A stretch of 64,000 bases of DNA from Azospirillum sp. GTDB lineage: Bacteria; Pseudomonadota; Alphaproteobacteria; Azospirillales; Azospirillaceae. A program made the position numbers and the translations under genes. Within the stretch, counting starts at the first letter, position 1; every line of letters begins with the position of its first letter. The stretch is from the NCBI GenBank assembly GCA_035629155.1, contig DASPIO010000028.1:23762-87761 (forward strand). The letters are read 5' to 3'. Under the pieces are notes generated by a model. The model had not been told where the DNA came from and made no database searches. It saw only the letters and a list, made by a program, of their open reading frames with translations. Below are positions 7,614 to 39,612 of this stretch, in pieces.

Positions 7614-9031
7614 GCCGTCCTCCCGATCGCCAGTCGCGCCGCGTCCATCGCGGCCTTCAGGAACGCCGCGCGATCGGCCAGCAACTGGTCGAAGGACGGC
7701 GATGCTTGGACAGTGTAGACCAGATGCCCGGCATCGGCCAGTGCCTGCACGGCGGCGTGCGCGACCACGCGGTTGGCCTCGACCGCCGGCAGCGCGCCCG
7801 TGACGACGGCGTCCAACAACGCCTGCTCGGCCGCGCGCCGGGCAGCACGGGCCATGGTGGCGAGGGATTCCGCGGGAAGCGTGCGGTCCACGCTGGCCGC
7901 GTACCGCGTGCCGTCGTGGCCGATGGCGCGGATCTCGGCGATGCCCGGATAGTGGGCCGTGGCCGACAGGTCGGCCGGGCTGAGCGACGAGCCGCCGGGG
8001 TGGTTGTGCACGACGACGAGCCGGCGGGCCGGGTCCGCCAGCTGCGCGGCGGCCTCCGTCGATGGGTTGACGGTGTTGGTCCGGCCGTCGGTGCGCGCCT
8101 CGATGACGGTGCCGGAGGTGGCGTCGACGATGACCAGGTGCTCATGGCCGGTGTCCCGGCCGCGCTCCAGCACCTGCGATTCCGCTTGCGCCACGGCACG
8201 GGCGGCGGGCGGGACGGACGGCTCTCCGCCGGGGCCGTCCACCGCGCCGCGCAGCGCCGGCGGTAGGGCGTCGCGCTTCTGCGCCAGCAGGCGCGCCGCC
8301 TGCGCGTCGCGGGCCGCCTTGCCCTTGTGGTAGGCGAAGCCGGGATCGACGCCGGCGGGCACCATGACCTCTTCGCCGGTGCGCTTGTTGGTCCAGGGGC
8401 GCGGGTCGGACGGCGGCGGGTTCTCGGTGACCGTCCAGCCCTGCCGCTCCAGGTCGCGCGCCGAGAGCTGCTGGAGCGTGCAGCGGCAGCGCCACCCGCA
8501 AGGCGGTGAACGCTCGTCCCACCAGGCATGGTCGACCGGCAGGATGGTGCCGTGCCACGCCGCGTGATCCGGCCGCGTCTTGGTGTCCTTCACCGCGACG
8601 TAGCGCAGGTACGGCCGGGCCGCCTTGACGCGCTCGATGCGTTCCCACTGCCCGGCCGCCTGCGCCATGCGGACGTTGGTGTCGAAGATGATGCGCAGCC
8701 GGCGGGGACTGCCAAGCTGCACCACCTTGGCCCGCCCATCGGCCGGATCGACCATGGGCTTGCGCCCCCACCAGCCCGCGGCCTGGAGGCGCGGCTCGAT
8801 GTCCGCAGCCCACTGCTCGTAGCTCTGCCCGTCGGCGATGGCTTTGACCAGCGAGCCGTGCACCTCGGCCAGCAGGTCGGCCTTCATCATCTTGGCCACC
8901 GTGAAGGCGTGCGCGTGCTCGGCCTGCCACATGTCCTGCCAAGCGAAGGAGACGCGATAGCCCTTGGCCTTCAAGAAGCCGATCGCCTCCTCCGGCGGCA
9001 GCGGCGTGAGCGTGGGGGTGGGATCAGCCAT
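7610..9031 (-). CDS. Mu gpF head morphogenesis protein with a C-terminal JAB/MPN-like extension
   Basis: MuF motifs (HAHAFTVAK, RRLRIIFDTN, PPCGWRCRC, GVDPGFAY), then about 190 extra aa containing E...HNHPGGSSLSPAD. Confidence 0.9.
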   Translation of the reverse strand: MADPTPTLTPLPPEEAIGFLKAKGYRVSFAWQDMWQAEHAHAFTVAKMMKADLLAEVHGSLVKAIADGQSYEQWAADIEPRLQAAGWWGRKPMVDPADGRAKVVQLGSPRRLRIIFDTNVRMAQAAGQWERIERVKAARPYLRYVAVKDTKTRPDHAAWHGTILPVDHAWWDERSPPCGWRCRCTLQQLSARDLERQGWTVTENPPPSDPRPWTNKRTGEEVMVPAGVDPGFAYHKGKAARDAQAARLLAQKRDALPPALRGAVDGPGGEPSVPPAARAVAQAESQVLERGRDTGHEHLVIVDATSGTVIEARTDGRTNTVNPSTEAAAQLADPARRLVVVHNHPGGSSLSPADLSATAHYPGIAEIRAIGHDGTRYAASVDRTLPAESLATMARAARRAAEQALLDAVVTGALPAVEANRVVAHAAVQALADAGHLVYTVQASPSFDQLLADRAAFLKAAMDAARLAIGRTA

Positions 9032-9731: not shown

Positions 9732-9958
9732 GCGGCGCGACGGGCACGGAACGCATGAAGGACGAGTAAGAGGCCCATGAGGAACGCCTCGCGCGGCGTC
9801 ATATCGATCCGGGCCCGGTTGTCCTCGTCCGGCTTCATGACAATGTGCACGGTGCCGTAGCGGCTCGTAATGACCTTTAGCCTGGGAGAAGGCGCGACCT
9901 GTGCGACAATGGCAGCGCCGGTGGTGCTGGCCCGCAGCTTCGCCAATTGGTCAGACAT
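9704..9958 (-). CDS. Hypothetical phage protein with a hydrophobic C-terminus
   Basis: Overlaps the portal stop and the MTase start; operon-like packing. Confidence 0.5.
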   Translation of the reverse strand: MSDQLAKLRASTTGAAIVAQVAPSPRLKVITSRYGTVHIVMKPDEDNRARIDMTPREAFLMGLLLVLHAFRARRAAWRHRKWRA

Positions 9959-11564
9959 TGCCACCCCCCATCACGCCGGCCCGCGCGGCGACGCGGGCCA
10001 CGAACTGGCCGCGGGCCAGCATGTCCTGGAGCGGCGCCAGGTCGGCGGCGCCGGCGAGGTCGGCGAGGCGGCGCAGGAACTCCTCCGGTCCCGCCGCCTC
10101 GCGGGCGGCCTGGATCACCGCCTCCACCAGCGGGGCGGCCAGCGGTTCCCAGTCGCCCAGCATCTCGTCGACCAGCCGATCGACGGCGTCGCCGTCGTCG
10201 GCGCCAGGGATCTGGGCGGCGGCCAGCGCCTTGTCGGCGGGGCCCCTCGCCGGCGGGGGTGGCGCGGCGGGGCTCCCAGCGGGATCGGCCGCCGGGTCCG
10301 GCGCCGACGCCGACGGGGCGGCCAGCAGCTCGTCCCCCTCGTCCGGGTCGCTGAAGTTGTAGCGGTCGCGGACCTCCGACATGGACACCTTCATGCCCAT
10401 GGGCACCAGCGTCTTCAGCGCTTCCAGCTGCAGCTTCAAGTCCTGCTGGTCCGGCCGGCCGATGCGCAGCAGCGGGGGCTTGGCCTTCGGGATGTTGAGG
10501 GCGACGGCGGGCGCCGCGAGGTCGCGCATCAGCGTGGCGGCGAGCTGGCGGGCGTCGGCGCGCTCGATGTCCTCCTGCACCTGGCGGTGCTCCTGCGACA
10601 CGGCATGCCCGCCGGAGATGGCGTCGGTGGTCGTCGTCTGGCCCAGCACCAGCTTGCTGGTCTGGCGCTCGAAGAACTCGACCAGCCCCTTGAAGATGTC
10701 CGCGTTGGCCGAGGCGCCCTCGGCGCGGATGAACTCCAGCATCATCGACTGGGGAATGATGGCGGCGGCGTCGGCGGCGATGTTCCGCACGGCGCGCAGG
10801 AGGGCGTCCATATCCGACTTGCTGGCGCCGGGGCCGTACCGGCCGACGCGGATGGGCTGGCCGTAGGTCTCGACGAAGGAAAGCCAGTCCTTCGTGCCGA
10901 ACGATGTGAACAGCCATGCCCAGCAGGCCGGCCGGGCCAAGCCGCCACGGATGGGGATGCCGGACTTGGTGCGCGGGCGGTGCACGATGAACTTGAAGAG
11001 ATCGAGGTCCCGGCCATCCGGGTAGCCGGACTCGCGCATGCGCAAGGTGGTATGGTCGACGCGGTCGAACTGGAACCAGCTCGGCTCGCGCCAGATCAGC
11101 TTGCGCGGCATCCACTGCCGCTCGGAGGTTTCCCAGACGATCTCAGAGACGGCGTAGCCCTTGGCGAGGCCGTCCAGCAGGTCGTACAGCGCGTCCGGGA
11201 ACTCCGGATCGGCGACGATCTCGCGCACCAGGTCGGCGGCGGCCACGTCCTCCAGCTTGTCGGACGCCGCCTCGACGGTGACCTCCAGCCCGGAGACGGC
11301 CAAGCGGCGGGTGGCGAGGACGGAGCGGAAGTGGATGAACTTCTCCTCGATGTCCTCGCACAGCGCCAGATAGGCGGCGGTGTCGCCGCCCTCGGCCGCG
11401 CGCAGAATGGTGCCCAGGCGCGCCGGCGTCAGGCCGTAGGAGGGATGATCGGCCAGCACCTGCCGCACGCCGGTCACGCTTGGGCCGGCAATCTCTTCCG
11501 TCAGCACCTCGCGCCGAATGGGCTGGCCCTCGGGGCCCAGGATCGGGGATAGGACGGTCGGCAT
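9951..11564 (-). CDS. Portal protein, Mu gp29 (DUF935)
   Basis: GLARPACWAWLF, FVETYGQPIRVGRY, SKLVLGQTTTT motifs; follows the terminase. Confidence 0.95.
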   Translation of the reverse strand: MPTVLSPILGPEGQPIRREVLTEEIAGPSVTGVRQVLADHPSYGLTPARLGTILRAAEGGDTAAYLALCEDIEEKFIHFRSVLATRRLAVSGLEVTVEAASDKLEDVAAADLVREIVADPEFPDALYDLLDGLAKGYAVSEIVWETSERQWMPRKLIWREPSWFQFDRVDHTTLRMRESGYPDGRDLDLFKFIVHRPRTKSGIPIRGGLARPACWAWLFTSFGTKDWLSFVETYGQPIRVGRYGPGASKSDMDALLRAVRNIAADAAAIIPQSMMLEFIRAEGASANADIFKGLVEFFERQTSKLVLGQTTTTDAISGGHAVSQEHRQVQEDIERADARQLAATLMRDLAAPAVALNIPKAKPPLLRIGRPDQQDLKLQLEALKTLVPMGMKVSMSEVRDRYNFSDPDEGDELLAAPSASAPDPAADPAGSPAAPPPPARGPADKALAAAQIPGADDGDAVDRLVDEMLGDWEPLAAPLVEAVIQAAREAAGPEEFLRRLADLAGAADLAPLQDMLARGQFVARVAARAGVMGGGNV

Positions 11565-13174
11565 CACCAAGCTCCATTGCGAAATAGCCAGACCTGCTGG
11601 TCATCATCCCAGACGGGCTCGTCACCGGGCCTCGGTTCGTAGTCGAGCACCGGATCCCGCTGGAGCGCAGGCGTGTAGGCGTACTCCGCCGGGTCCTGGC
11701 GGCTGGCGAAGTGGCACAGGGCGGCGGCGATGCCGGCGTCGCCGTGGCGCATGTTGCCGTCCGCGCCCATGGTGCGTGCCTGGGTGCGCTTCAGCTGGGC
11801 GACGCCGTCGCGCACCTCGAACTGGCCGAAGTCGACCAGCCAGTCGGCGTCCCTGGGCAGCAGGATCGAGGCGCCCTCGAACGCCGCCTTGAACGGCGGC
11901 ATGTTCACGCGATACCACTCGGTGCTGAACTTCACCTCGATCACCGTCTGGGGCCCGAAGTGCTGGCGCATGCGTTCGGCCAAGCTGGCGCCGTTGCCGC
12001 CCGCGTCGATCGCCGCGCGCGTCAGGCGCGGCAGACGGTCGAGCACGTACTTGACGACGAACTTCTGCTCTTCGTCGGGGACCTGCCGCATCTCCAACGC
12101 GCACGCCGCGCGCAACGTCAGGTCGGACAGGAGCTGGGCCGGCATGCCGATCGAGGCATCGCGCAGGCGGGCATAATCATGGCCGTAGAAGGACTGCCGC
12201 TCGCGGTCGCAGCGATCCAGAACGGGGCGCAGGTTCTCCTCGCACCATGCCAGGGCCACCGCTTGGCGGGCGTAGTCCGGCAGGTCGACGAAGCCGGGCT
12301 CGACCTGCCAGCGCAGCACGGGGATCTCGTCCGACATGCGGGCCAGCACCAGAGGGCGCGGGAGCCATGTGCCGCCCTTGTGCTTGGGGATGACGTGCAG
12401 TTCCTCGTCGGCCGCGTCGCCGTAGCTGGCCACGATCTCCGCGCGCCACGCCGCCTCCTTCTCGGCCGTCCACTCCTCGCCCTTGACCATGCAGATACGT
12501 CGGTACAGCCCATCCGCGATGGCCTCGTCGAAGGTGACGCGCAGCACGGCATAGGGCTTCTTGCCGGCGCGGATGGACTCGATCAGCTGGTTGAACGGGT
12601 TGTCGGTGCCGTCGTGGGTGGAGATGATCGCGACCTTGCCGCCCCAGATCAGCAGCGCCATGGCCGCCTTGATCAGCTCGTCCAGATCATCGTGGAAGGC
12701 CGCCTCGTCGACGATGACGTACCCCTGCCGGCCGCGCAGGGAGCGCGGGCGGCTGGCCAACGCCAGGATCTCGAACCCGCTGGCGAAGGTGATGCGGAAC
12801 GCCTTGATGCCGTCGTCGCTGCCGTCGTCGAACAGGATCTCGTCGCTGGCCGAGCACGCCTTGTCGAACAGCCGGGACCAGGAACCGGCGGTGTCCACAA
12901 ATTCTCTGGCCATGTCGAGGTTGTAGCCGATGTACAGCACGTCCATGCCGCCGGCCTTCTTCTCGGCGGCGGCGGTGAGGACGGCGTCGGCGGCGACGGC
13001 CCAGGTGAAGCCGATGCGGCGGGACTTCTCGCACACGATGACGGTGTGCATTCCCGTCGTGGCGAGGAACTTCTGCTGATAGCCGAGCAGCAGGTCAAGG
13101 CCGTCTCCGGCGTCGCCCAGCAGCGCGGCCGGCAGGTCGGCCGGCCTGCTCTTATCGGGCCAGGGGGCGCTCAT
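11564..13174 (-). CDS. Terminase large subunit (Mu gp28-like)
   Basis: KSRRIGFTW Walker A, VIVDEAAFH Walker B, GHDYAR and IDAGGNG nuclease motifs, HGDAGIA. Confidence 0.95.
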   Translation of the reverse strand: MSAPWPDKSRPADLPAALLGDAGDGLDLLLGYQQKFLATTGMHTVIVCEKSRRIGFTWAVAADAVLTAAAEKKAGGMDVLYIGYNLDMAREFVDTAGSWSRLFDKACSASDEILFDDGSDDGIKAFRITFASGFEILALASRPRSLRGRQGYVIVDEAAFHDDLDELIKAAMALLIWGGKVAIISTHDGTDNPFNQLIESIRAGKKPYAVLRVTFDEAIADGLYRRICMVKGEEWTAEKEAAWRAEIVASYGDAADEELHVIPKHKGGTWLPRPLVLARMSDEIPVLRWQVEPGFVDLPDYARQAVALAWCEENLRPVLDRCDRERQSFYGHDYARLRDASIGMPAQLLSDLTLRAACALEMRQVPDEEQKFVVKYVLDRLPRLTRAAIDAGGNGASLAERMRQHFGPQTVIEVKFSTEWYRVNMPPFKAAFEGASILLPRDADWLVDFGQFEVRDGVAQLKRTQARTMGADGNMRHGDAGIAAALCHFASRQDPAEYAYTPALQRDPVLDYEPRPGDEPVWDDDQQVWLFRNGAW

Positions 13175-13710
13175 GCGGCGGCCTTGCGGATACCGAGGAA
13201 GTCTTCCTTGATGGCCTTGACCATGTCGGCCGACAGGCCCTTCTTCTTGCCCACCGCCTCAAGCGTGGCGAGTGCCTTCTTGTCGGCCTCGGCCTGGAGC
13301 TTCAGCACCAGGTCGGCGTCCGTCTTCCGGGCCGATGTCAGCTTCTGGATGGCGCCGGCCGCGAAATTGGCTTCCTGGGCGTCGAGTTGGACCGGCTCGC
13401 CGTCCTTGCCGGCCAGCAGGCGCATCAGCATGGCGTGACCAAGCTCGATGTTCAGCCGCGCCACCTTGCTGTCGGGTTCGTCGCCCAGCTCCCTCACCAG
13501 CGCTTCAGCGGCCTCGCGCGTCTCGCGCAGCTGCGCGCCGATCTTCTCGATCTTCTGGACGTGGCGGCCAACCGCACTGCGCGAGACGTCGACCTGCATG
13601 CCGCGCAGGTGGGCGAGGATCTCGTCGATCGTCGCGCCGTCCTGCCGCAACTGGCCGATGGCCTCGCGGATTTCCTTGGGCAGACGGTCGATGCTGGAGC
13701 GGGCGGCCAT
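13171..13710 (-). CDS. Terminase small subunit (Mu gp27, DUF3486)
   Basis: RSSIDRLPKEIR...VSRSAVGRH HTH-type N-terminus, directly upstream of TerL. Confidence 0.9.
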   Translation of the reverse strand: MAARSSIDRLPKEIREAIGQLRQDGATIDEILAHLRGMQVDVSRSAVGRHVQKIEKIGAQLRETREAAEALVRELGDEPDSKVARLNIELGHAMLMRLLAGKDGEPVQLDAQEANFAAGAIQKLTSARKTDADLVLKLQAEADKKALATLEAVGKKKGLSADMVKAIKEDFLGIRKAAA

Positions 13711-13714
13711 GGCG

Positions 13715-14011
13715 TCAGCCCAGGCTGGGCAGCTTGACGCCCGGCAACGGAGCGCCCAGGCGCTTGAGGTGGTTGTCGCCGGCGGCGCGCAGCTCGGCGA
13801 CCAGGACGGTTCCCACCTGCTCGGTGGCCACGGCCTGGAGCGTGCCGAGGTATCCAAGCTGCTGCACGACCTGTTCGCGCGTCACGTGGTGGCCCAGCCG
13901 GTTGGCCAGATCCTGGAGGATGGAGGCGTTGGCCCTCGCCCCCGGCGCCTCGGCAAGGAGGCGCAGGAGCACCAGGCGCAGATCCTCGATCAGATGATCC
14001 TGGAAGCTCAT
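13715..14011 (-). CDS. Mu gp26-like winged-helix protein
   Basis: RLVLLRLLAEAPG.RAN.SIL...PGVKLPS motif in its conserved position. Confidence 0.85.
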   Translation of the reverse strand: MSFQDHLIEDLRLVLLRLLAEAPGARANASILQDLANRLGHHVTREQVVQQLGYLGTLQAVATEQVGTVLVAELRAAGDNHLKRLGAPLPGVKLPSLG

Positions 14012-14313
14012 GCCTTGGCCTTCGTGTTGAGGAGGTAGTCCTCGATCCGCCGGACGCTGGCGCTGATGCCGGCGAGCAGCTGCTGCTGCGCGTCGACCTT
14101 GCCCTCCAGCTGGGCGACGTCGTCGCGCAGGACGGCGAAGTCCTTGTGCGTCGGCAGGTGGCGCAGCTCCTGCTCGATCAGCGCGACGCGCGTGGCCAGC
14201 TTGTCGAAGTCGGCGCGCGGCACGAAGGCGGCGCGCATCGACCACAGGAGCCAGCCGAGGAACAGGTTGATGAGCAGGACGATGGCCCAGCCCCATTTGA
14301 CCAGCTCGTCCAT
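14008..14313 (-). CDS. Mu gp25-like membrane-anchored coiled-coil protein (DUF2730)
   Basis: N-terminal TM segment, EQELRHLPT motif, coiled coil. Confidence 0.85.
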   Translation of the reverse strand: MDELVKWGWAIVLLINLFLGWLLWSMRAAFVPRADFDKLATRVALIEQELRHLPTHKDFAVLRDDVAQLEGKVDAQQQLLAGISASVRRIEDYLLNTKAKA

Positions 14314-14358
14314 CAGCGCATCTCCCGGCCGGCGGTCAGTCGTAACGGCGTGTCCACG

Positions 14359-14964
14359 TCACACCCCCTGGGCGGGGGCGGTCGCGTCCAGAACTGCGGA
14401 CTCCGCCGGCGGCATGACGTTCTTGTCCACCAGCATCAGCAGGCGGGCCTCGACCATGTTGTGCAGGCTGATGTCGTCGATACCGAAATGCTTCAGCGCG
14501 CCGGGCACGCGATCCAGGGCGTATTGCGCGGCCAGCGCCACGGTGGTGTTGTGCAGGTCGATCGGCTCGGCCTGCTTCGCGACGAAGGCTTCGGCCTTGG
14601 CGGTGCCGTAGCTGATGGCACGGTCCAGCGCCTTTTCCAGGTAGTCGCGGGTGTGCGCATCGACCTCCAGGCCGGTGCGGCGTTCGATGGAGCGGACCAG
14701 CGCCCGCGCCAGGATGCCGACGATCGCCGTGATGGCGGTGCCCACCGTGCCGACGACGGTGACCAGGAGGGGCGAGAGATCAACGGTGGTGCCGTCGCCG
14801 GCCAGGGCGGTGAAGGGCATCAGGACGAAGCCCACGGCGAAGGCCGCCGCCATGGCCGCGCGATCGTCGCGGGTGAAGCAGAGGTGGATGACGACGGCGA
14901 CGAAGCCGATCATGGCCACCGTCAGGGCGGCGATCAGCAGGAAGGGCGCGGCGGAGACGGGCAC
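14359..14964 (-). CDS. Putative holin / lysis membrane protein
   Basis: Three hydrophobic segments; directly downstream of the endolysin. Confidence 0.6.
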   Translation of the reverse strand: MPVSAAPFLLIAALTVAMIGFVAVVIHLCFTRDDRAAMAAAFAVGFVLMPFTALAGDGTTVDLSPLLVTVVGTVGTAITAIVGILARALVRSIERRTGLEVDAHTRDYLEKALDRAISYGTAKAEAFVAKQAEPIDLHNTTVALAAQYALDRVPGALKHFGIDDISLHNMVEARLLMLVDKNVMPPAESAVLDATAPAQGV

Positions 14965-14979
14965 GGGGAACCTCCAGGA

Positions 14980-15567
14980 TCAGGTGGGCTGGGCGTAGGC
15001 GCGGTTGAGCCAGCCCTTCTCGAACGTGCCGAGGGGCGGACGGGCGAGGACGAGGCCGCGGTAGAAGCCGGCCGCCTCGCTCTTCAGCGCGGCGATCAGC
15101 GACCGCGCGTCGGCGGCGTTGACGGCAGAGATGGACTTGGGACCCAGGACGCCGTCGTCGGAGACGGGGAACCAGCAGGCACGCACCGCGCGCTGGAGGC
15201 AGCGGTGGGCGGGGCCGGGGCCCATGTTGACCGCGAGGTCGAAGGTCTTGATGGCGATGGCCGGGTCGATGATGCGCGCGTAGCCGTGGCGGTCCCACCA
15301 GCGCGAGCGGTAGAGCTGGGCGGCGCGCTCACGCGGCATCGTGCGGATATCGTCGGCATCGACGTCGCCGTCGCCGTCCACGTCGCCATCGGCCAAGCCG
15401 TCGTGGTCGAGGTCGAGCAGCCCTTCGGCGCGCAGGAAGCGCAGGCTGATGCCGAAGTTGGTGATGCCGCCGGGATCGGCGGGATCGTTGGACAGGCCGC
15501 CCTCGTGCTTCAACACGAAGACGAGCGCGCGCTCGAACAGGTCGTCGGCGGGGGACAAAGGCGGCAC
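14980..15567 (-). CDS. Endolysin, glycoside hydrolase family 108 with PG_binding_3 domain
   Basis: HEGGLSNDPADPGGITNFGI catalytic motif; DGVLGPKS; FEKGWLNRA. Confidence 0.93.
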   Translation of the reverse strand: MPPLSPADDLFERALVFVLKHEGGLSNDPADPGGITNFGISLRFLRAEGLLDLDHDGLADGDVDGDGDVDADDIRTMPRERAAQLYRSRWWDRHGYARIIDPAIAIKTFDLAVNMGPGPAHRCLQRAVRACWFPVSDDGVLGPKSISAVNAADARSLIAALKSEAAGFYRGLVLARPPLGTFEKGWLNRAYAQPT

Positions 15568-15621
15568 TCCCGTGGGTGGTGGGATGCCGCGAGTTTCGCG
15601 CGCATGCGTCTTCAGGCGGGC

Positions 15622-15700
15622 ACGGAACTGGTTCCGCCCCCGCGTCGCGGGTCAGGGTAGTCCGTAATGGGGAGGATGCGACCGCCGGAACCGGTTCCGC
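15622..15700 (-). promoter_or_regulatory. Putative lysis late promoter: dyads CCGGAAC-CG-GTTCCGC (15685-15700) and ACGGAAC-TG-GTTCCGC (15622-15637), -10 TACCCT (15654-15659)
   Basis: Same dyad and spacing as the promoter before gpI; position matches Mu Plys. Confidence 0.65.
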
Positions 15701-15701
15701 G

Positions 15702-16076
15702 TCAGTCGAACAGGCTGGGTGCCTTGGGGTCGACGGCGCGGACCTCAGCATTGACCTTGCGGACGTGCCGCTCGGTGCAGCCGAGTTCCATGGCAATCTG
15801 ACGCGTTGTGCCAGTGGCGCGCAAGATGTGTTGCTTCAGGGCTTTGGTGGACTTGGCGTTCGGCACGTCCACCTGTTCGCCAGGGTAGATGGCGGCGAGC
15901 ACCTGCGCCGCCTCAAGCCCGATCAATTCCACCAGCGGCTGGCCGAGGCGCGGGTTGGCCGGAACCTTCCGCTTTGTGCCGCCCCACGCCTGCACGAGCT
16001 TCCACGCCGCGTCGACGTGGCCGGCGCGGGCGAGGTCGCCCAGGATGCCGGGCAAGTGGACGCGCTCCTCCGTCAT
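15702..16076 (-). CDS. Mor/C-family late transcription activator (helper)
   Basis: LIGLEAAQVLAAIYPGEQVDVP plus C-terminal HTH (TRQIAMELGCTERHVRKV); lies between gemA and lysis as in Mu. Confidence 0.88.
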   Translation of the reverse strand: MTEERVHLPGILGDLARAGHVDAAWKLVQAWGGTKRKVPANPRLGQPLVELIGLEAAQVLAAIYPGEQVDVPNAKSTKALKQHILRATGTTRQIAMELGCTERHVRKVNAEVRAVDPKAPSLFD

Positions 16077-16549
16077 CCTTTGGCCTCGGCCTTCTGGGCG
16101 CGGGCGTGCATGGCCTTCAGCGCCTCGATCACCTTGGCCGCCTGGGCGATCGGCAGGCGGCCCATCTGCTGACCGGTCACCTTCGCGATGAAGGCGTCCA
16201 TGGCCGGAACGCCCCGGCTCTTGACGGTACCGGCCTGGTGCAGGTCGATCCACAGCGCGCGGATCTTCCCGAGCTGCGGCGTATCGGCGTAGCGCGACGT
16301 CGGCCGGCCGGCGGCCTTGCCCTTCGGTTGGCCGGCGCCGAGGGCGCGGAAGCCGTCGAGCAGCGCCCGGCGCTCCGCCGTGGTCAGTTCGGCGGAGCTG
16401 TCCGTCCGCCCGTTCGAAGCCTGAAGGACGCGCGCCCGGTAGCAATCATCGGCGAGCGCCAGTTCCTTCTTCATGGCGTGGATGGCCGCCAGCTCCCTCT
16501 TGCGCTGCTGGTCACGATCCGCGCCGGATGGTTTGACGGGAGTTCGCAT
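16073..16549 (-). CDS. gemA: GemA / Mu gp16 (DUF1018)
   Basis: LAAIHAMKKELAL.DD.YR...GR.DSSAELT, QLGKIRALW motifs. Confidence 0.92.
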   Translation of the reverse strand: MRTPVKPSGADRDQQRKRELAAIHAMKKELALADDCYRARVLQASNGRTDSSAELTTAERRALLDGFRALGAGQPKGKAAGRPTSRYADTPQLGKIRALWIDLHQAGTVKSRGVPAMDAFIAKVTGQQMGRLPIAQAAKVIEALKAMHARAQKAEAKG

Positions 16550-16674
16550 TTCAATACCCTCGTTTGGTGGCGTACCGCAGTTGCGGTGCAGCGCGGATAG
16601 GCCGGCGCTCCTACGGAGCCTTGGCGCTATCTCGCGGGTGCGGTAGTGGCGGCCCGAAGGCCGCCACCGCACGA

Positions 16675-17337
16675 TCAGCCGGCCGGCGTGAAGTCGAGGA
16701 AGTATTCCTTGCCCTGCTCGAACGCGCCCCAAGCATCGGGGTTGCTGATGTACATGTGAAGCTGGCCGCCCGGCGTTGCCGCCGACCACTTCGCATTCTC
16801 GCTGTTGGGGTCGGCGGAGTACACCGGGGCGAAATAAACTTCTTCGGCGACCTTGGTCCCGGCGGTATCGTTTCGCTCGGCGAGGTTGTTGCAGCAGAAC
16901 TTGGCTCGGATGTTCATAGTGTGCTCTCCATGTGGTGCCGGGAAACCGCCCGGCGCGGGTTCGGTTGATCGCGAAGAAGGCTCGCCGTGCCCGACCGGGC
17001 AGAGCGGTATGTCCAGCAGATTGCCGTCCCATCCGCACTCCGGGCAGGGATGCGCCGCCGACACCGGCCGGGCCTGGAACTGCTGCACCAACTCATTCAG
17101 CCGCGCGACGGCAGCGGCTGGATCCATGCGGCGCCATGGCCGGTCTTCCAGCACCGCCACCAATTCGGTGGGCGACAAGCCGCCACGCTCGGCGAGGCGG
17201 CGAAGCGACTGGCCGTGATTGCGCTGCGCCTGGGCTTCGTGCGGTTGGACGAGAGACAACGGGACCGTCTTCGGCTGGCCGGGCAGCGGCTTGTTGCCAA
17301 GTCCTGTCAGGACGGGAAAGGTGCTGGTGGTGCTCAT
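16675..17337 (-). CDS. Hypothetical phage ORF; the C-terminal 80 aa (start 16917) is a conserved small phage protein
   Basis: Internal GGAGAG-ATG gives MNIRAKF...ATPGGQLHMYISNPDAWGAFEQGKEYFLDFTPAG. The N-terminal half (HEAQAQRNHGQSLRRLAERGGLS) looks like a second module. Confidence 0.65.
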   Translation of the reverse strand: MSTTSTFPVLTGLGNKPLPGQPKTVPLSLVQPHEAQAQRNHGQSLRRLAERGGLSPTELVAVLEDRPWRRMDPAAAVARLNELVQQFQARPVSAAHPCPECGWDGNLLDIPLCPVGHGEPSSRSTEPAPGGFPAPHGEHTMNIRAKFCCNNLAERNDTAGTKVAEEVYFAPVYSADPNSENAKWSAATPGGQLHMYISNPDAWGAFEQGKEYFLDFTPAG

Positions 17338-17403
17338 GACGGCCTCTCTTTGGGATTGGGGACCACAGTCCCATTGCTGCGCTGCACGCGTTTTGACGCG
17401 CGT

Positions 17404-18144
17404 TCAAACGGTGGGTTTGCCGGGCTTGCGGCCACCCATGCGGAGCTTGAAAAGACGCTCGGAACCAGCGTGCAAGAGTTGGCAGAAGTCGGGATCTTCG
17501 GTGGCGCACAGGCCCTTTTCGGCCAGATGGATGATGGCGCGGCCCAGATCGGGAATGCCGGGAAGGCTGTCCTGCTCAACCTGGAAGCCCCGCATCCCGC
17601 TGTGGGAGTGCTCGTCCATCCACTCCAGGACGCAGAGTTCCTGTGCTTCCGTCAGGCGGAAGACGGTCCGCTTGGTCGCCCTGGCTCCCGCCTTGCCGCC
17701 CCGTCGCTTCGGCTTGGCGGCCTGCCAGTCAGCCAGGCGCGTACCTTGGCGGCGGAGCTGCACCAGCCCCTCCCAAGTGGATAGCTCTGCGTGCAGCCGC
17801 TCGTAGTCCTTTGTGAAGCGGTCACGAACTTCGGCAGTGACGGGGGCCAGCCCGAAGGTGAGGAACACCTCATGGACCAGCACCAGCGCCAGTGCGTCCT
17901 TGCTGTAGCGCTTCGTCAGCTCCTGGGCGGTGGCCTGCAACACCGCGTGTCCGCCGGTGCGGGTGGCGTCGTTGCTGGTGGCGTCGAACAGGGCGAGGTG
18001 GGCGTTCATGCCTCCCTTCACTTCTTCGCCCAGCGCCAGCAAGCGGTTGAGCCAGTAATCGGCAATGCCGTGGTCGACAACGTTGCGCACGCCGTCCGGC
18101 GTTCGCGCCAAGTCGAGGATGGAGGTAGCGGTGCGGCGCTTCAT
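17404..18144 (-). CDS. Hypothetical phage early protein
   Basis: 246-aa ORF overlapping the upstream stop (ATGA); no recognised family. Confidence 0.55.
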   Translation of the reverse strand: MKRRTATSILDLARTPDGVRNVVDHGIADYWLNRLLALGEEVKGGMNAHLALFDATSNDATRTGGHAVLQATAQELTKRYSKDALALVLVHEVFLTFGLAPVTAEVRDRFTKDYERLHAELSTWEGLVQLRRQGTRLADWQAAKPKRRGGKAGARATKRTVFRLTEAQELCVLEWMDEHSHSGMRGFQVEQDSLPGIPDLGRAIIHLAEKGLCATEDPDFCQLLHAGSERLFKLRMGGRKPGKPTV

Positions 18145-18584
18145 CGGAGGGGTTCCTGTGCAGGCTGCCAGCGGACGAGCACCCCGGCGAACTCCGTCAC
18201 GCCGGGGTGGTTGTCGCGCCAGAAGGCGGCCATGTCGTCGAAGTCGTGGAAGCCATCCCAGCGGGCGAAGATGTCCAGCTCGGTCGCATCGGCCATTTCG
18301 ATCCAAGTGGGGGCGGTGGCGCTGTACAGGATCAGGCGGGCCGCTTGTGATGGCGACGGCAGCAACAGCCGGACGCGCTGCACGGCCGTGCAGGTGGGCG
18401 AGCCGATCCGGCGGCAGTGCTTGGTCCGCATGGCCGCGTAGAGCTGGATGACCTCGCCCGGCCGGGCATGGCGCTTGCGCGGGGCGCGGATGGTTTGGCG
18501 CTTCATCCCCGGCACCAGCGGCCCCGGCTCCAGGCCGGCGACAACGGGGTCGATGAAACGCTTCTGAAACGAGTAGGCGACCAT
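18141..18584 (-). CDS. ASCH/PUA-like domain protein
   Basis: YSFQKRF...KRQTIR...PGEVIQLY...FARWDGF pattern. Confidence 0.75.
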   Translation of the reverse strand: MVAYSFQKRFIDPVVAGLEPGPLVPGMKRQTIRAPRKRHARPGEVIQLYAAMRTKHCRRIGSPTCTAVQRVRLLLPSPSQAARLILYSATAPTWIEMADATELDIFARWDGFHDFDDMAAFWRDNHPGVTEFAGVLVRWQPAQEPLR

Positions 18585-28226: not shown

Positions 28227-28787
28227 ATGACTTACGACAACCGGGAAGGGCCGGACGAAGTGGGAAGGGCTCTTCCCACTTACGAGGCGGAACTGGGAAC
28301 ACGGATTTCCCTCGTCATCGACCTGTACGATCTTAAGGCCGACGCGGCACGGGTCGCGGATGTTACGCCCGAGATGTTGAACCGGTACGTGCGCGGACAG
28401 CACAAAATACCCTTCACCAACGCCGCTCGGCTGGCTTCAGCCAAAGGTGTCAGTCTTGACTGGCTGTGGAGCGGAGAAGGACCAATGCTTCTGCGTGATC
28501 GCGTGCACGACTCGCCGCCAGCGGCGGTCGAGTCATTCGACCTTGCGTTGATGGGCAATCTCGTGTCCGGCCTGATGGCATTCCTGCAAAGGGAGAGCCT
28601 GGATCTAGATCCGGAATACATTGGTCGGGCGGTGACCCTGCTTTACATGCTGATGGAGCGCGAGCGCCGCGACACCACCCCGGAGGATCGGCCGGATCTG
28701 TGGGTGGAGGGGCACCCCGTGGACATCGCAAACGATAAAATCCTGGCGGAAACCGTACGCCTCGCACTCGGGCGGTTGCGTAGGTAG
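28227..28787 (+). CDS. Prophage repressor (XRE HTH; no S24 peptidase domain)
   Basis: AARVADVTPEMLNRYVRG...LASAKGVSLDWLWSGEGPM; divergent from ner at the left end, as for Mu c. Confidence 0.85.
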   Translation: MTYDNREGPDEVGRALPTYEAELGTRISLVIDLYDLKADAARVADVTPEMLNRYVRGQHKIPFTNAARLASAKGVSLDWLWSGEGPMLLRDRVHDSPPAAVESFDLALMGNLVSGLMAFLQRESLDLDPEYIGRAVTLLYMLMERERRDTTPEDRPDLWVEGHPVDIANDKILAETVRLALGRLRR

Positions 28788-30955: not shown

Positions 30956-31000
30956 TGTAGCGCGCCGAATGGTTTGAATTGGCGCGCTGGATGGTTTGAC
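30956..31000 (+). repeat. Satellite right-type end: terminal TG and two tandem ATGGTTTGA sites (30969, 30991) 22 bp apart
   Basis: Read directly from the sequence; the 22-bp period matches Mu R1/R2 spacing. Confidence 0.88.
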
Positions 31001-37251: not shown

Positions 37252-37584
37252 CTACGCCTCGCGGGCGTGCCCGCCAGCGCCAACCGCGCGCTCCATGATC
37301 GTATCGACCTTCTCCGTGACTAGCTCCAGCATGGCGATCCACTGGCCCCGCTCGGTGGTGCCCATGATCATCGCTTCAATGGCGCGCAGTCCGGCCTTCA
37401 CCTGCATCAGGTCGTCGCCCAGGCTGTGTTCTGCCTCGCCAGCGACGTAGCCGGCCATGCCCCTCCTACGCGCCTTCCCCATGATGGACGTGAGTTCTTC
37501 GATCACCGCTTCTCTGACCGCGCTCCCCCGCTCCGCGCTGTTCTTGAGGAAGATCACGTTGTTTCCGGTGTTGTCGTGGGCCAT
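37252..37584 (-). CDS. Satellite early hypothetical protein (110 aa)
   Basis: AGGAGG upstream of ATG; helical ORF downstream of the Bro-like gene. Confidence 0.6.
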   Translation of the reverse strand: MAHDNTGNNVIFLKNSAERGSAVREAVIEELTSIMGKARRRGMAGYVAGEAEHSLGDDLMQVKAGLRAIEAMIMGTTERGQWIAMLELVTEKVDTIMERAVGAGGHAREA

Positions 37585-37691
37585 ATTCGAAGAGCCTCCT
37601 ATGGGTTCGCCCGGTGGCACGGTGGCGGGGCACGGTTTTCCAGGCCAAGCGCCCCGCCACCACCCGTCGCGGGCGGTGGGGTGGTAGGGAA

Positions 37692-38216
37692 TCACGATCC
37701 GGCGATGTCGAGGATGCGACGCGCCTTCTCGATGGTGACCGTCAGTTCCATGCGCACGAGGTTGGTTGTGGGGATGCCAGCCCCCGCCTCGCCCATGTCC
37801 AGGCCCGGCGGGATCGGCGGGGCCTCACCCTCCGGCCCGAAGGTCGTGTAGAGCCACCGCAGCACCCCAACGGCGTGGGCGGAGCGACTACGGGCCACCA
37901 TCACCTTCGCGGCAGGGATGGAAAGAAGGCGGGTTGCGGCGCCTCTCCCGTCGTCGATCTGGCGCAGTAGGACGGCGCCCGGCTCTCGCAGTTCCGGGAA
38001 GGTTGACGCGGCATGGTCCACCGACTGCCTTGCCCAACTGGCGCCGGCCGCCCGCATCAGGTCGTTGCCGAGGACGTAGGTTGTGCCGTCCACCGAGAAG
38101 ACGCGGACGGGGGCCGCACCACAGTAGAGGGTGCAGACAGGCGGCAGGCGGGCGTTGTCGGCTGGCACCTCGGGCCGTCCTTCGGCGGGGGCCGCTGGTG
38201 TGCGGGGATCGTCCAT
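37692..38216 (-). CDS. Bro-N / antirepressor-like protein
   Basis: VRVFSVDGTTYVLGNDLMRAAG...LLSIPAAKVMVARSRS.HAVGVLRWL pattern. Confidence 0.7.
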   Translation of the reverse strand: MDDPRTPAAPAEGRPEVPADNARLPPVCTLYCGAAPVRVFSVDGTTYVLGNDLMRAAGASWARQSVDHAASTFPELREPGAVLLRQIDDGRGAATRLLSIPAAKVMVARSRSAHAVGVLRWLYTTFGPEGEAPPIPPGLDMGEAGAGIPTTNLVRMELTVTIEKARRILDIAGS

Positions 38217-38244
38217 CTACTGCTCCAAACTGCGGTTGCGTTGG

Positions 38245-38315
38245 CCCCATGCATGGGGTAATTTGCCCCAGATTGGGCGCCGTTGCAATGGCAAAATGCG
38301 CCAACGTTGGGGTAA
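38245..38315. promoter_or_regulatory. Three operator-like dyads between divergent regulators
   Basis: CCCCATGCATGGGG (38245-38258, perfect), CCCCAGATTGGGCG (38266-38279), CGCCAACGTTGGGG (38299-38312). Confidence 0.65.
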
Positions 38316-38323
38316 ATCGCACC

Positions 38324-38560
38324 ATGATTACGGGTGACCAAATCCGGGCCGGCCGGGAACTGCTCAACTGGTCTGCCCGCGTCTTGTCTGAGCGGGCAGG
38401 CGTGGGGCCGAACACGGTGCAGCGCATGGAAAGCGCCGGAGCGGCGGTGCCATCAGGTCTTGCCGCCAACCTGGACAAGGTGCAGAAGGCATTAGAGGCG
38501 GGTGGGATTGAGTTCCGGGACGGCGGGTGGGTGCGTAGGTCACCGCAGAACGGCGCGTAA
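38324..38560 (+). CDS. XRE-family HTH regulator (satellite repressor candidate)
   Basis: MITGDQIRAGRELLNWSARVLSERAGVGPNTVQRME...LEAGGIEF, a common alphaproteobacterial XRE pattern. Confidence 0.88.
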   Translation: MITGDQIRAGRELLNWSARVLSERAGVGPNTVQRMESAGAAVPSGLAANLDKVQKALEAGGIEFRDGGWVRRSPQNGA

Positions 38561-38645
38561 GACGTGCTACCGATCACCAATGCGAGGGTGTCAACGCCAA
38601 AGTGATGCACCTTAACCACCGGCATCACTGTGGTAAGGTGCGCAC

Positions 38646-38843
38646 ATGGCTGTGAACCCGGATACCACCGTACGCAAGGTCGTCTCGCTTCCCAAAGAGT
38701 TGTGGGAAGAGGTGAGCGACTATCGCTTTGATAACAGATTGGGCACGGAAGCGGACGCGCTTCGGCGTCTGATCCAACTTGGATTGGATGCCGCCAAGGC
38801 CAGTCCCCGCGATCCTGGCCGCGCACCGTCGCGGAAGCGCTAG
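38646..38843 (+). CDS. Ribbon-helix-helix (CopG/Arc-like) protein
   Basis: RKVVSLPKELWEEVSDYRF...TEADALRRLIQLGL. Confidence 0.8.
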   Translation: MAVNPDTTVRKVVSLPKELWEEVSDYRFDNRLGTEADALRRLIQLGLDAAKASPRDPGRAPSRKR

Positions 38844-39291
38844 TCGCTCCCCAAAGCAAGCGAGGCGGGACCGCGCCAGCGGCCCCGCCTCGTAGTGTCT
38901 GGCACCCATGCGGAGGGTTGGGAGACTGGCGTCAACGGACGCCACGCCCCACCACGTTGCCACACCAGCGCCCGCCCGATGCCTCGGAACGAGTTCCGCT
39001 TGGTGGGAGCCGGCGGCAGGCTCCATCTACAACCGGCGCGCGATCCCGAGACGGCGGGCCGGAACCGGAACCCCTTCCCACTTCCGGACGGATCTTTCAT
39101 CGCGCGATGGTTGTGACGGAAACGCAAGCCACTGCAATAACAAGCTTTTTTGAACTGTAGCCTTCCCAGTTTGACTGGAAACGCTAGCTTCCACTTCCGT
39201 CCCACTTCCGTAGCCGAACCGGGACCCGGCCTACGCGCCACATCCCTTGCAAATCTTGGCTTTAGCTGCGTTTTAGTGCCGCCTCCGTTCA

Positions 39292-39462
39292 GTCAATCCA
39301 TACGTCTCCCGGACACTTTCGCGCGTTGCGCCGCATGGTTTGGCGGAAAATTCCGGTTGTGCCCCTAACCCTATGATCCAATGCGCCGTTCATCCCATCT
39401 GATCCCCGAAAATCCCACGGTATCCCGGCCCCCTATCCTGTCAAACCATTGGTCTCTCCACA
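39292..39462 (-). repeat. Satellite left-type end: three transposase-type sites (39292, 39335, 39440) and terminal CA
   Basis: GTCAATCCAT / ATGGTTTGGC / GTCAAACCAT in the same orientations as the helper, spacings 43 and 105 bp vs 43 and 107 bp. Last 62 bp are 58/62 identical to 30156-30217. Confidence 0.92.
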
Positions 39463-39612
39463 GACGCGCTCCGGCCAAGGCGCCCAGCCGCGGTGCGACC
39501 AGAAACGCAGCAGGTCGCCCGGGCCCTTGTCGGTCGACTGGAAATGCGGCGGGTTGAAGAACCGCCGTCCGTCGCAATGGTCGGAAACCGGGAAGCGCGC
39601 GATGCGGGCCAT
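39463..39612 (-). pseudogene. N-terminal fragment of the interrupted MBL-fold hydrolase
   Basis: MARIARFPVSDHCDGRRFFNP...DLLRFW...WPERV, the usual N-terminus of this family; joins in frame to 30950. Confidence 0.92.

Follow-up and report, generated by a model that had tools for sequence, protein, structure and literature searches.

In the 64,000-nucleotide stretch of an Azospirillum sp. assembly analyzed here (the window; GenBank GCA_035629155.1, contig DASPIO010000028.1, positions 23,762 to 87,761 of the forward strand), an 8.5-kb, Mu-ended, transposase-less element, apparently a satellite of a transposable (Mu-like) phage, lies next door to such a phage (the helper) and carries a small divergent regulatory module at positions 37692-38843. 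As a whole, this module seems best explained as a core switch, a ribbon-helix-helix (RHH)-like repressor gene opposite a Bro-N-domain gene, that would have been rewired by a cassette consisting of an XRE-family repressor gene and its operators, an explanation that we hold to be slightly better than an even bet. The open reading frame (ORF) coordinates agree with the layout claimed in a first-pass annotation of this DNA, i.e., XRE and RHH genes divergent from a Bro-type gene across a gap of 107 bp:

37692-38216, minus strand: Bro-N-domain gene, the first early gene (174 aa; ORF)
38217-38323, no strand: divergent control region of 107 bp between the Bro-N and XRE genes (collinear with the region upstream of the closest XRE homologue)
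38324-38560, plus strand: XRE-family helix-turn-helix (HTH) protein (78 aa; HTH_3 match)
38646-38843, plus strand: RHH-like ORF (65 aa; phrog_4738 match)

The XRE protein scores 26.3 bits on HTH_3 (PF01381; cut-off 23) and consists of one HTH domain and a short tail, with no sensor domain, while the XRE and RHH-like ORFs are separated by 85 bp. These data support viewing the region as one that controls divergent repressor and early genes, at the c-proximal end of the element. A toxin-antitoxin pair was rejected as the identity of the module, the toxin gene being absent.

The evidence that carries this explanation comes from the two relatives whose control region is readable, namely L001, an 8.9-kb metagenome contig with a whole related element, and L047, from Azospirillum agricola. 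In both, the Bro-N gene comes first in the early direction and the RHH-like gene is directly divergent from it, with no XRE gene between the two, and since the pair is seen there directly, the sequences indicate that RHH-like opposite Bro-N is the core switch of the family. The intergenic region of both relatives contains a conserved TTGACA and three direct repeats of the GGTGCATCAC / AGTGTATCAC type (at 764, 805 and 823 in L001, and at 9807, 9849 and 9867 in L047; spacings of 41-42 and 18 bp), whereas a single exact copy of GGTGCATCAC is found in the whole 64-kb window. The parts of this ancestral arrangement still recognizable in the window are as follows:

38589-38594, minus strand: TTGACA, the -35 of the family's ancestral early promoter (three-way comparison of window, L001 and L047)
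38602-38611, minus strand: GGTGCATCAC, the sole surviving repeat, abutting TTAACC at 38612-38617 and forming an inverted repeat with 38622-38633
38612-38645, plus strand: core upstream of the RHH-like gene (TTAACC, 16 nt, TAAGGT, 6 nt, ATG), kept in L001 and L047

The geometry of the upstream core is TTGACC-16-TAGGGT-6-ATG in L001 and TTGACC-16-TATGGT-6-ATG in L047, which gives TT(G/A)ACC, 16 nt, TA(A/G/T)GGT, 6 nt and ATG as the consensus across the three elements; TAAGGT may act either as the -10 of a leaderless mRNA or, through its AAGG, as a Shine-Dalgarno-like element. Aligned to L001, the window DNA is homologous from the RHH-like gene across this core and up to about 20 nt past TTGACA; the homology is then lost and returns at the Bro-N gene. 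The XRE gene together with the 107-bp gap thus makes up a cassette of about 310 bp standing in place of repeats 2 and 3 of L001/L047, exactly between the old promoter and the Bro-N ribosome-binding site; the old -10 region has been removed, and the surviving TTGACA, upstream of the cassette, now points antisense into the XRE gene. As the window keeps a truncated repeat array and a degenerate remnant, comparison of the three loci favours gain of the cassette in the window lineage rather than its loss elsewhere. The suggestion that the XRE protein represses the element therefore stands only in part: it belongs to a credible repressor-operator pair (see below), but it is not the master repressor of the family, the relatives making do with an RHH-like protein and its own repeats, and from these alignments it looks like a lineage-specific second lock.

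In the working that we propose, the RHH-like repressor gene, read towards the left end, would be divergent from an early promoter (-35 TTGACA) driving the Bro-N gene, and in the ancestral form three direct GGTGCATCAC-type repeats would span both promoters. A portable cassette (XRE, its own promoter and two 17-bp TGGGG-N7-CCCCA operators) would have replaced the two promoter-proximal repeats, so that control of the Bro-N gene would have passed, wholly or partly, to XRE. Bound to one of the two operators (site A), an XRE dimer would shut the divergent Bro-N and XRE promoters by covering their -10 regions, which overlap; the other operator (site B), at the XRE start codon, would provide further autoregulation, and the RHH-like protein would now mainly regulate its own gene through the repeat that is left. 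A lapse of repression would lead to synthesis of the Bro-N protein and of the products of the downstream early genes, the former being most likely a "Bro network" regulator acting on DNA or on a repressor protein.

The operators assumed in this scheme are not quite those proposed at first, when three copies of C(C/G)CCA-N4-TGGGG were claimed in the gap, one of them a perfect palindrome. Two copies fit the pattern and the palindrome is genuine, but the third has a shorter spacer and an imperfect arm; the same half-sites also make two 17-bp dyads, TGGGG-N7-C(C/A)CCA, 54 nt apart:

38245-38258, no strand: dyad 1 of the first-pass annotation, CCCCATGCATGGGG, a perfect palindrome sharing its right arm with site A
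38266-38278, no strand: dyad 2 of the same, CCCCAGATTGGGC (CCCCA-GAT-TGGGC), with a 3-base spacer and an imperfect arm, outside the N4 pattern
38299-38312, no strand: dyad 3 of the same, CGCCAACGTTGGGG, fitting the N4 pattern and sharing its right arm with site B
38254-38270, no strand: operator candidate A, TGGGGTAATTTGCCCCA (TGGGG-N7-CCCCA), a unique 17-mer pattern with a counterpart in register in L007
38308-38324, no strand: operator candidate B, TGGGGTAAATCGCACCA, abutting and overlapping the XRE start codon, with a counterpart in L007
38236-38241, plus strand: TTGCGT, proposed -35 of a distal XRE promoter, 17 nt upstream of TAATTT
38259-38264, plus strand (TAATTT), and 38265-38260, minus strand (CAAATT): -10-like hexamers in the AT-rich centre of site A, as read from the sequence

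Chance was rejected as the origin of this half-site cluster, since the gap is the one place in the 64-kb window where 110 bp contain four exact CCCCA/TGGGG pentamers (six of 9128 sliding windows, all overlapping the gap); the N4 dyad pattern has four matches in the window, both strands counted, versus 0.83 expected from shuffles. The exact 17-mer pattern TGGGGTAANNNNCNCCA occurs twice in the 7-Mb genome, both times in the gap. Choosing between the two spacings is helped by L007 (the L052 locus of an Azospirillum metagenome-assembled genome), which encodes the closest XRE homologue and whose 100-nt upstream region is collinear with the window gap: a TTGCGT box is followed by TGGGGTAAATTACACCA, the counterpart of site A, and, about 50 nt further on, by TGAGGTAAAATACCCCA abutting the ATG, the distance between the two sites being 50 nt in L007 versus 54 nt in the window. 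As the N7 dyads recur there in register, whereas the N4 dyads CCCCATGCATGGGG and CGCCAACGTTGGGG have no counterpart in the L007 upstream region, the 17-bp N7 dyads are, by this comparison, the more likely operators, and together with XRE they form a credible candidate repressor-operator pair. A search with the two-operator DNA pattern returned the L007 genome as its single match among genome contigs and no match among metagenome contigs.

Divergent promoters in the gap are tentatively placed, by inference only, at TTGCGT-17-TAATTT in the XRE direction and at TTGCAA-17-CAAATT in the Bro-N direction, the 174-aa gene having a GGAG ribosome-binding site; a TTGCG(T/C) lying 16-18 nt upstream of a TA-rich hexamer is also present at the XRE homologues L007, L008, L010-L012, L014 and L015.

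An explanation that grants the cassette no regulatory role is that it is a passenger dropped in by recombination, with the RHH-like protein alone controlling Bro-N through read-through from the surviving TTGACA promoter. The absence of the cassette from both relatives and the retention of the -35 at 38589-38594 would suit it, as would the fact that XRE homologues are very common and are paired with unrelated genes (a LuxR-type one in L007). The insertion, however, sits precisely where it would separate the promoter from the Bro-N ribosome-binding site, it cost the old promoter its -10 region along with two operator repeats, and neither the XRE ORF nor either dyad is damaged, a second sample having them in identical form, which makes an inert passenger very improbable. 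That second sample (L053; Joint Genome Institute metagenome 3300029655) contains the same element at the same insertion site with two single-nucleotide polymorphisms in 2 kb, one in the Bro-N gene and the other changing V12 to I in the RHH-like protein; being the same strain at the same site, it was rejected as a source of an operator footprint.

The 174-aa protein had been called Bro-type, and at the level of the domain this label holds: the profile alignment of its four-member family matches P0005, a bona fide Bro-N protein (Pfam Bro-N, E 1e-24), with an hhalign probability of 96.6% (E 5.2e-10; 90 columns; residues 36-127, i.e., positions 37836-38111). A search of 1.84e9 representative proteins with the family profile gave three matches, the third being P0005 at E 1.4e-4, and the relatives of the protein score 13.8-22.1 bits on Bro-N (PF02498) over the full length of the domain, the gathering score being 25.6; the window protein itself has no Pfam match at E<=0.1 and so falls below that score. 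The protein thus seems, by profile comparison, to carry a remote but real Bro-N domain. Beyond residue 127 there is a 47-residue tail, composed of a low-complexity linker and a conserved 22-residue C-terminus (37695-37760), in which Pfam and PHROG scans found no ANT, KilAC or P22_AR_C effector domain. The gene is kept in L001, L003 and L047 at 49-57% identity and is the first in the early direction in all four relatives. The family looks very rare, as far as such searches tell: a word-index search with the protein gave two relatives, a scan of 130 genomes of the order gave the window's own copy and one weak match, and nothing was found when the Bro-N alignment was searched against metagenome contigs.

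What such a protein does on release is where the proposals diverge. According to the first-pass annotation, XRE silences the element until a helper signal arrives, and the Bro-N protein may then antirepress the c repressor of the helper, which has no S24 domain, much as P4 epsilon acts on P2 C. Several observations suit this: the Bro-N domain is supported by hhalign, Bro-network proteins include proven antirepressors such as P22 Ant, and the gene is under tight repressor control and conserved in all relatives. The helper repressor (28227-28787) matches HTH_3 and Phage_CI_repr only in a domain scan, which bears out the claim that it lacks S24, and a repressor of this kind needs another route of inactivation. 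Coordination of co-resident prophages by trans-acting antirepressors is described in PMC3121763. Against it stands the absence of the C-terminal domain (ANT, KilAC or P22_AR_C type) of characterised antirepressors, all the more so as AriS-like proteins have separable activities in distinct N- and C-terminal domains, of which the N-terminal one is thought to be DNA-binding (PMC9043618). Furthermore, in L047 the Bro-N protein is conserved, yet the adjoining Mu-like early region contains no homologue of the window helper's c. XRE lacks a sensor domain, and the analysis turned up no candidate for the helper signal.

Nor do the two elements share operators: the helper control region lacks both the 17-bp dyads and the GGTGCATCAC repeat, and comparison of helper c/ner with the satellite switch gave four scattered 9-mers in common, at chance level and none in an operator. 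The view that the module is unrelated to the helper's c/ner is confirmed at the protein level, the XRE, RHH-like and Bro-N proteins having no match to helper c, ner or cII in tblastn and BLASTP, and no sequence similarity to anything in the whole helper. That the Bro-N protein would switch on the helper phage by antirepression seems unlikely; the more specific version, in which a Bro-N-only protein would inactivate the S24-less Mu-type c through its conserved C-terminal peptide, the satellite thereby triggering helper induction, appears a shade more doubtful still.

The same protein might instead be the element's own early DNA-binding regulator, Cro/Ner-like or an activator, that would act on its own promoters or on RHH-like/XRE and not on the helper repressor. 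The Bro-N gene occupies the Mu ner position, where the helper has a Ner-like HTH_35 protein and where no similarity to Ner was found in the element; Bro-N is regarded as a DNA-interactive domain (PMC10111431, PMC9043618), and apart from Bro-N the protein consists of little more than a short conserved tail, possibly for dimerisation. DNA binding is the role ascribed to the N-terminal domain (Bro-N, AntA or Rha) of AriS-like proteins, another activity lying in a separate C-terminal domain (PMC9043618); by analogy, a protein made up of Bro-N only would be no less suited to regulating the element from within, by binding DNA, than to antirepression. No DNA motif could be assigned to the protein, however, and the conserved C-terminal 22 residues could equally well be a protein-binding peptide, so this role is best regarded as possible, if somewhat doubtful.

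The other partner of the core switch, the RHH-like protein, matches phrog_4738 ("transcriptional repressor") at E 7.9e-8 and is 57% identical to its L001 and L047 orthologues; three of its homologues are labelled CopG/Arc/MetJ by their sources, and the family has conserved N-terminal and TEAEAIRRL-type motifs.

Several points weigh against the rewired-switch explanation as a whole. The RHH-like assignment is not confirmed: it relies on the PHROG match, the source names, the conserved motifs and the helices of an AlphaFold2 model, and that model, with two helices and an unstructured N-terminal stretch, is of low confidence (predicted local distance difference test, pLDDT, 62.1). RHH_1 was matched in one of 27 homologues (at 0.0085), neither PDB nor Foldseek gave a match for the fold, and the profile hit PDB sequences at insignificant values only (T7 gp5.9, for instance, at E 0.23). 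The Bro-N family fared no better in structure prediction, with a low-confidence AlphaFold2 model (pLDDT 51.5) and no usable Foldseek match in the PDB. Gain of the cassette is inferred from just two relatives and a degenerate repeat remnant, the operator footprint comes from a single homologous cassette (L007/L052), and the true sites could be, or could include, the N4 dyads, of which one is a perfect palindrome. The proposed promoters agree with the E. coli consensus at three to four of six positions, and a promoter scan of the region, for which these hexamers are below the threshold, found none. Finally, the RNA data are low-depth metatranscriptome contigs with neither direction nor transcript starts.

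Among known systems, the immI region of phage P22 (mnt / arc-ant) is the closest classical example of a repressor guarding a Bro-network gene. There, too, small RHH-type repressor gene(s) are divergent from a member of the Bro/antirepressor network, the operators extending over promoters placed back to back, and in L001 and L047 the two genes face each other in just this way with three GGTGCATCAC-type repeats in between. Unlike in P22, however, the product is Bro-N only, not P22_AR_N/P22_AR_C, the RHH fold is unconfirmed, the module, at the Mu c/ner position, seems to serve as the main switch rather than as an accessory immunity region, and the window has an extra XRE layer between the two genes. 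The Mu c-operators-ner region, whose arrangement is exactly that of the helper next door (HTH_3 repressor, HTH_35 Ner), likewise has its repressor gene(s) by the left end, read towards it, with the early operon diverging from a short operator region; as the element has no similarity to helper c or ner, only the position is analogous, and its first early gene is Bro-N rather than Ner, with no transposase genes following.

Bro-network genes also lie beside immunity determinants in Gram-negative phage-inducible chromosomal islands (PICIs), and the "dynamic zone" of these satellites is alike in this respect (PMC10111431). PICIs differ in having a tyrosine integrase and AlpA, and many have repressor RNAs, whereas the element is Mu-ended, has no integrase and has two small protein repressors. 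P4 epsilon/P2 and the Stl repressor of Staphylococcus aureus pathogenicity islands serve as analogies only, for a satellite inducing its helper or being derepressed by it: Stl proteins are much larger than 78 aa, and the XRE protein, with its single HTH, has no extra helper-binding domain.

The pairing recurs, and modules in which a small repressor guards a Bro-network gene are thus of a known kind. XRE homologues of 50-57% identity, each with its own upstream dyads, are present in 79 of the 130 genomes of the order (a word-index search for XRE relatives returned the protein itself only), and the divergent neighbours of four of the eight scanned belong to the Bro network, namely Bro-N (L014), Rha (L009, L030) and P22_AR_N (L024), whereas the L007 homologue is paired with a LuxR-type gene; in L050, an RHH homologue faces an ORF6N gene. 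No description of a satellite of a transposable (Mu-like) phage was found in the literature searched, and the key question on any such satellite is how its silence is kept and how its coupling to the helper works. With the XRE-operator cassette inside it, the RHH-like/Bro-N module would clearly exemplify how an immunity region is rewired in a modular way, the sites are defined precisely enough for binding and reporter work, and, should it be true that the Bro-N protein acts on the helper repressor, this would be a new induction route for Mu-type repressors that are unable to autocleave.

As for the element itself, its TG...CA ends at 30956 and 39462 and the 5-bp GACGC duplication were re-verified in the sequence, excision in silico restores one continuous host ORF, and 70 nt of its left end are 90% identical to the left end of the helper, which encodes an HTH_3 repressor, a Ner-like HTH_35 protein, a CII-like protein and MuA. 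A soil metatranscriptome contig (run X2, record 5) runs from the inside of the element to its left end (window 39462-39466), where GACG is followed by 26 letters, TCGGCGATGGTGCGCGTCACGCTCTG, that differ from the window flank, which suggests the presence of the element at another insertion site in that soil sample. In L001, the region directly past the right end of the element (7682-8946) encodes a helper-type c repressor reduced to its C-terminal two thirds (from about residue 53; 40% identity to window 28227-28787), followed by a homologue of the helper's left-end membrane-protein cargo gene, so that the L001 satellite appears to be inserted inside a helper repressor gene. The L047 locus (11036-18263) continues past the RHH-like/Bro-N module with an I protease gene, a gpT gene split by an insertion sequence (Transposase_mut) and a 245-aa ORF with no Pfam match that is Mor-like by eye. 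The genes for Ner, a CII-like protein, MuA and MuB come next in the same orientation, with no c homologue in between; either a rearranged phage or the fusion of a satellite remnant with a Mu-like early region may account for the locus.

Past the Bro-N gene, the second early gene (37252-37584) is more likely a 110-aa ORF, whose ATG (37584) is preceded by the ribosome-binding site GGAGG, than a 147-aa GTG ORF. Its product has no Pfam or PHROG match, and the slot seems variable among relatives, since tblastn found no homologue in L001, L003 or L047. A search of genome contigs for related loci with the Ntn-like protein found nothing. Between the two early genes lies one further feature:

37621-37661, minus strand: GC-rich hairpin/dyad GGTGGCGGGGC-N19-GCCCCGCCACC, just downstream of the Bro-N gene, with a conserved stem

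The stem is the same in the window, L001 (about 1396-1436) and L003, save for the last pair (C-A in L003), while the flanking coding DNA has diverged among the three, and nowhere do the window and L001 agree better at the DNA level than in the 171-bp stretch containing it (83%). Neither covariation nor a U-tract was found in these three sequences, and the feature could be an RNA hairpin or a protein-binding dyad. On the other side of the module, a 14-bp GC-rich hairpin at 38861-38892, 18 nt past the RHH-like stop codon and terminator-like on the minus strand only in the scan, may end RHH/XRE transcription before the left-end transposase-binding region. Elsewhere in the same genome, TGCGGTAATTTGCCCCA on contig C75 (31616-31632; L040 1501-1517) equals site A at 16 of 17 positions, the whole spacer included; its setting is a host intergenic region flanked by the gene of an ABC-transporter binding protein and a small ORF, and it may be due to chance or be a host site recognised by XRE.

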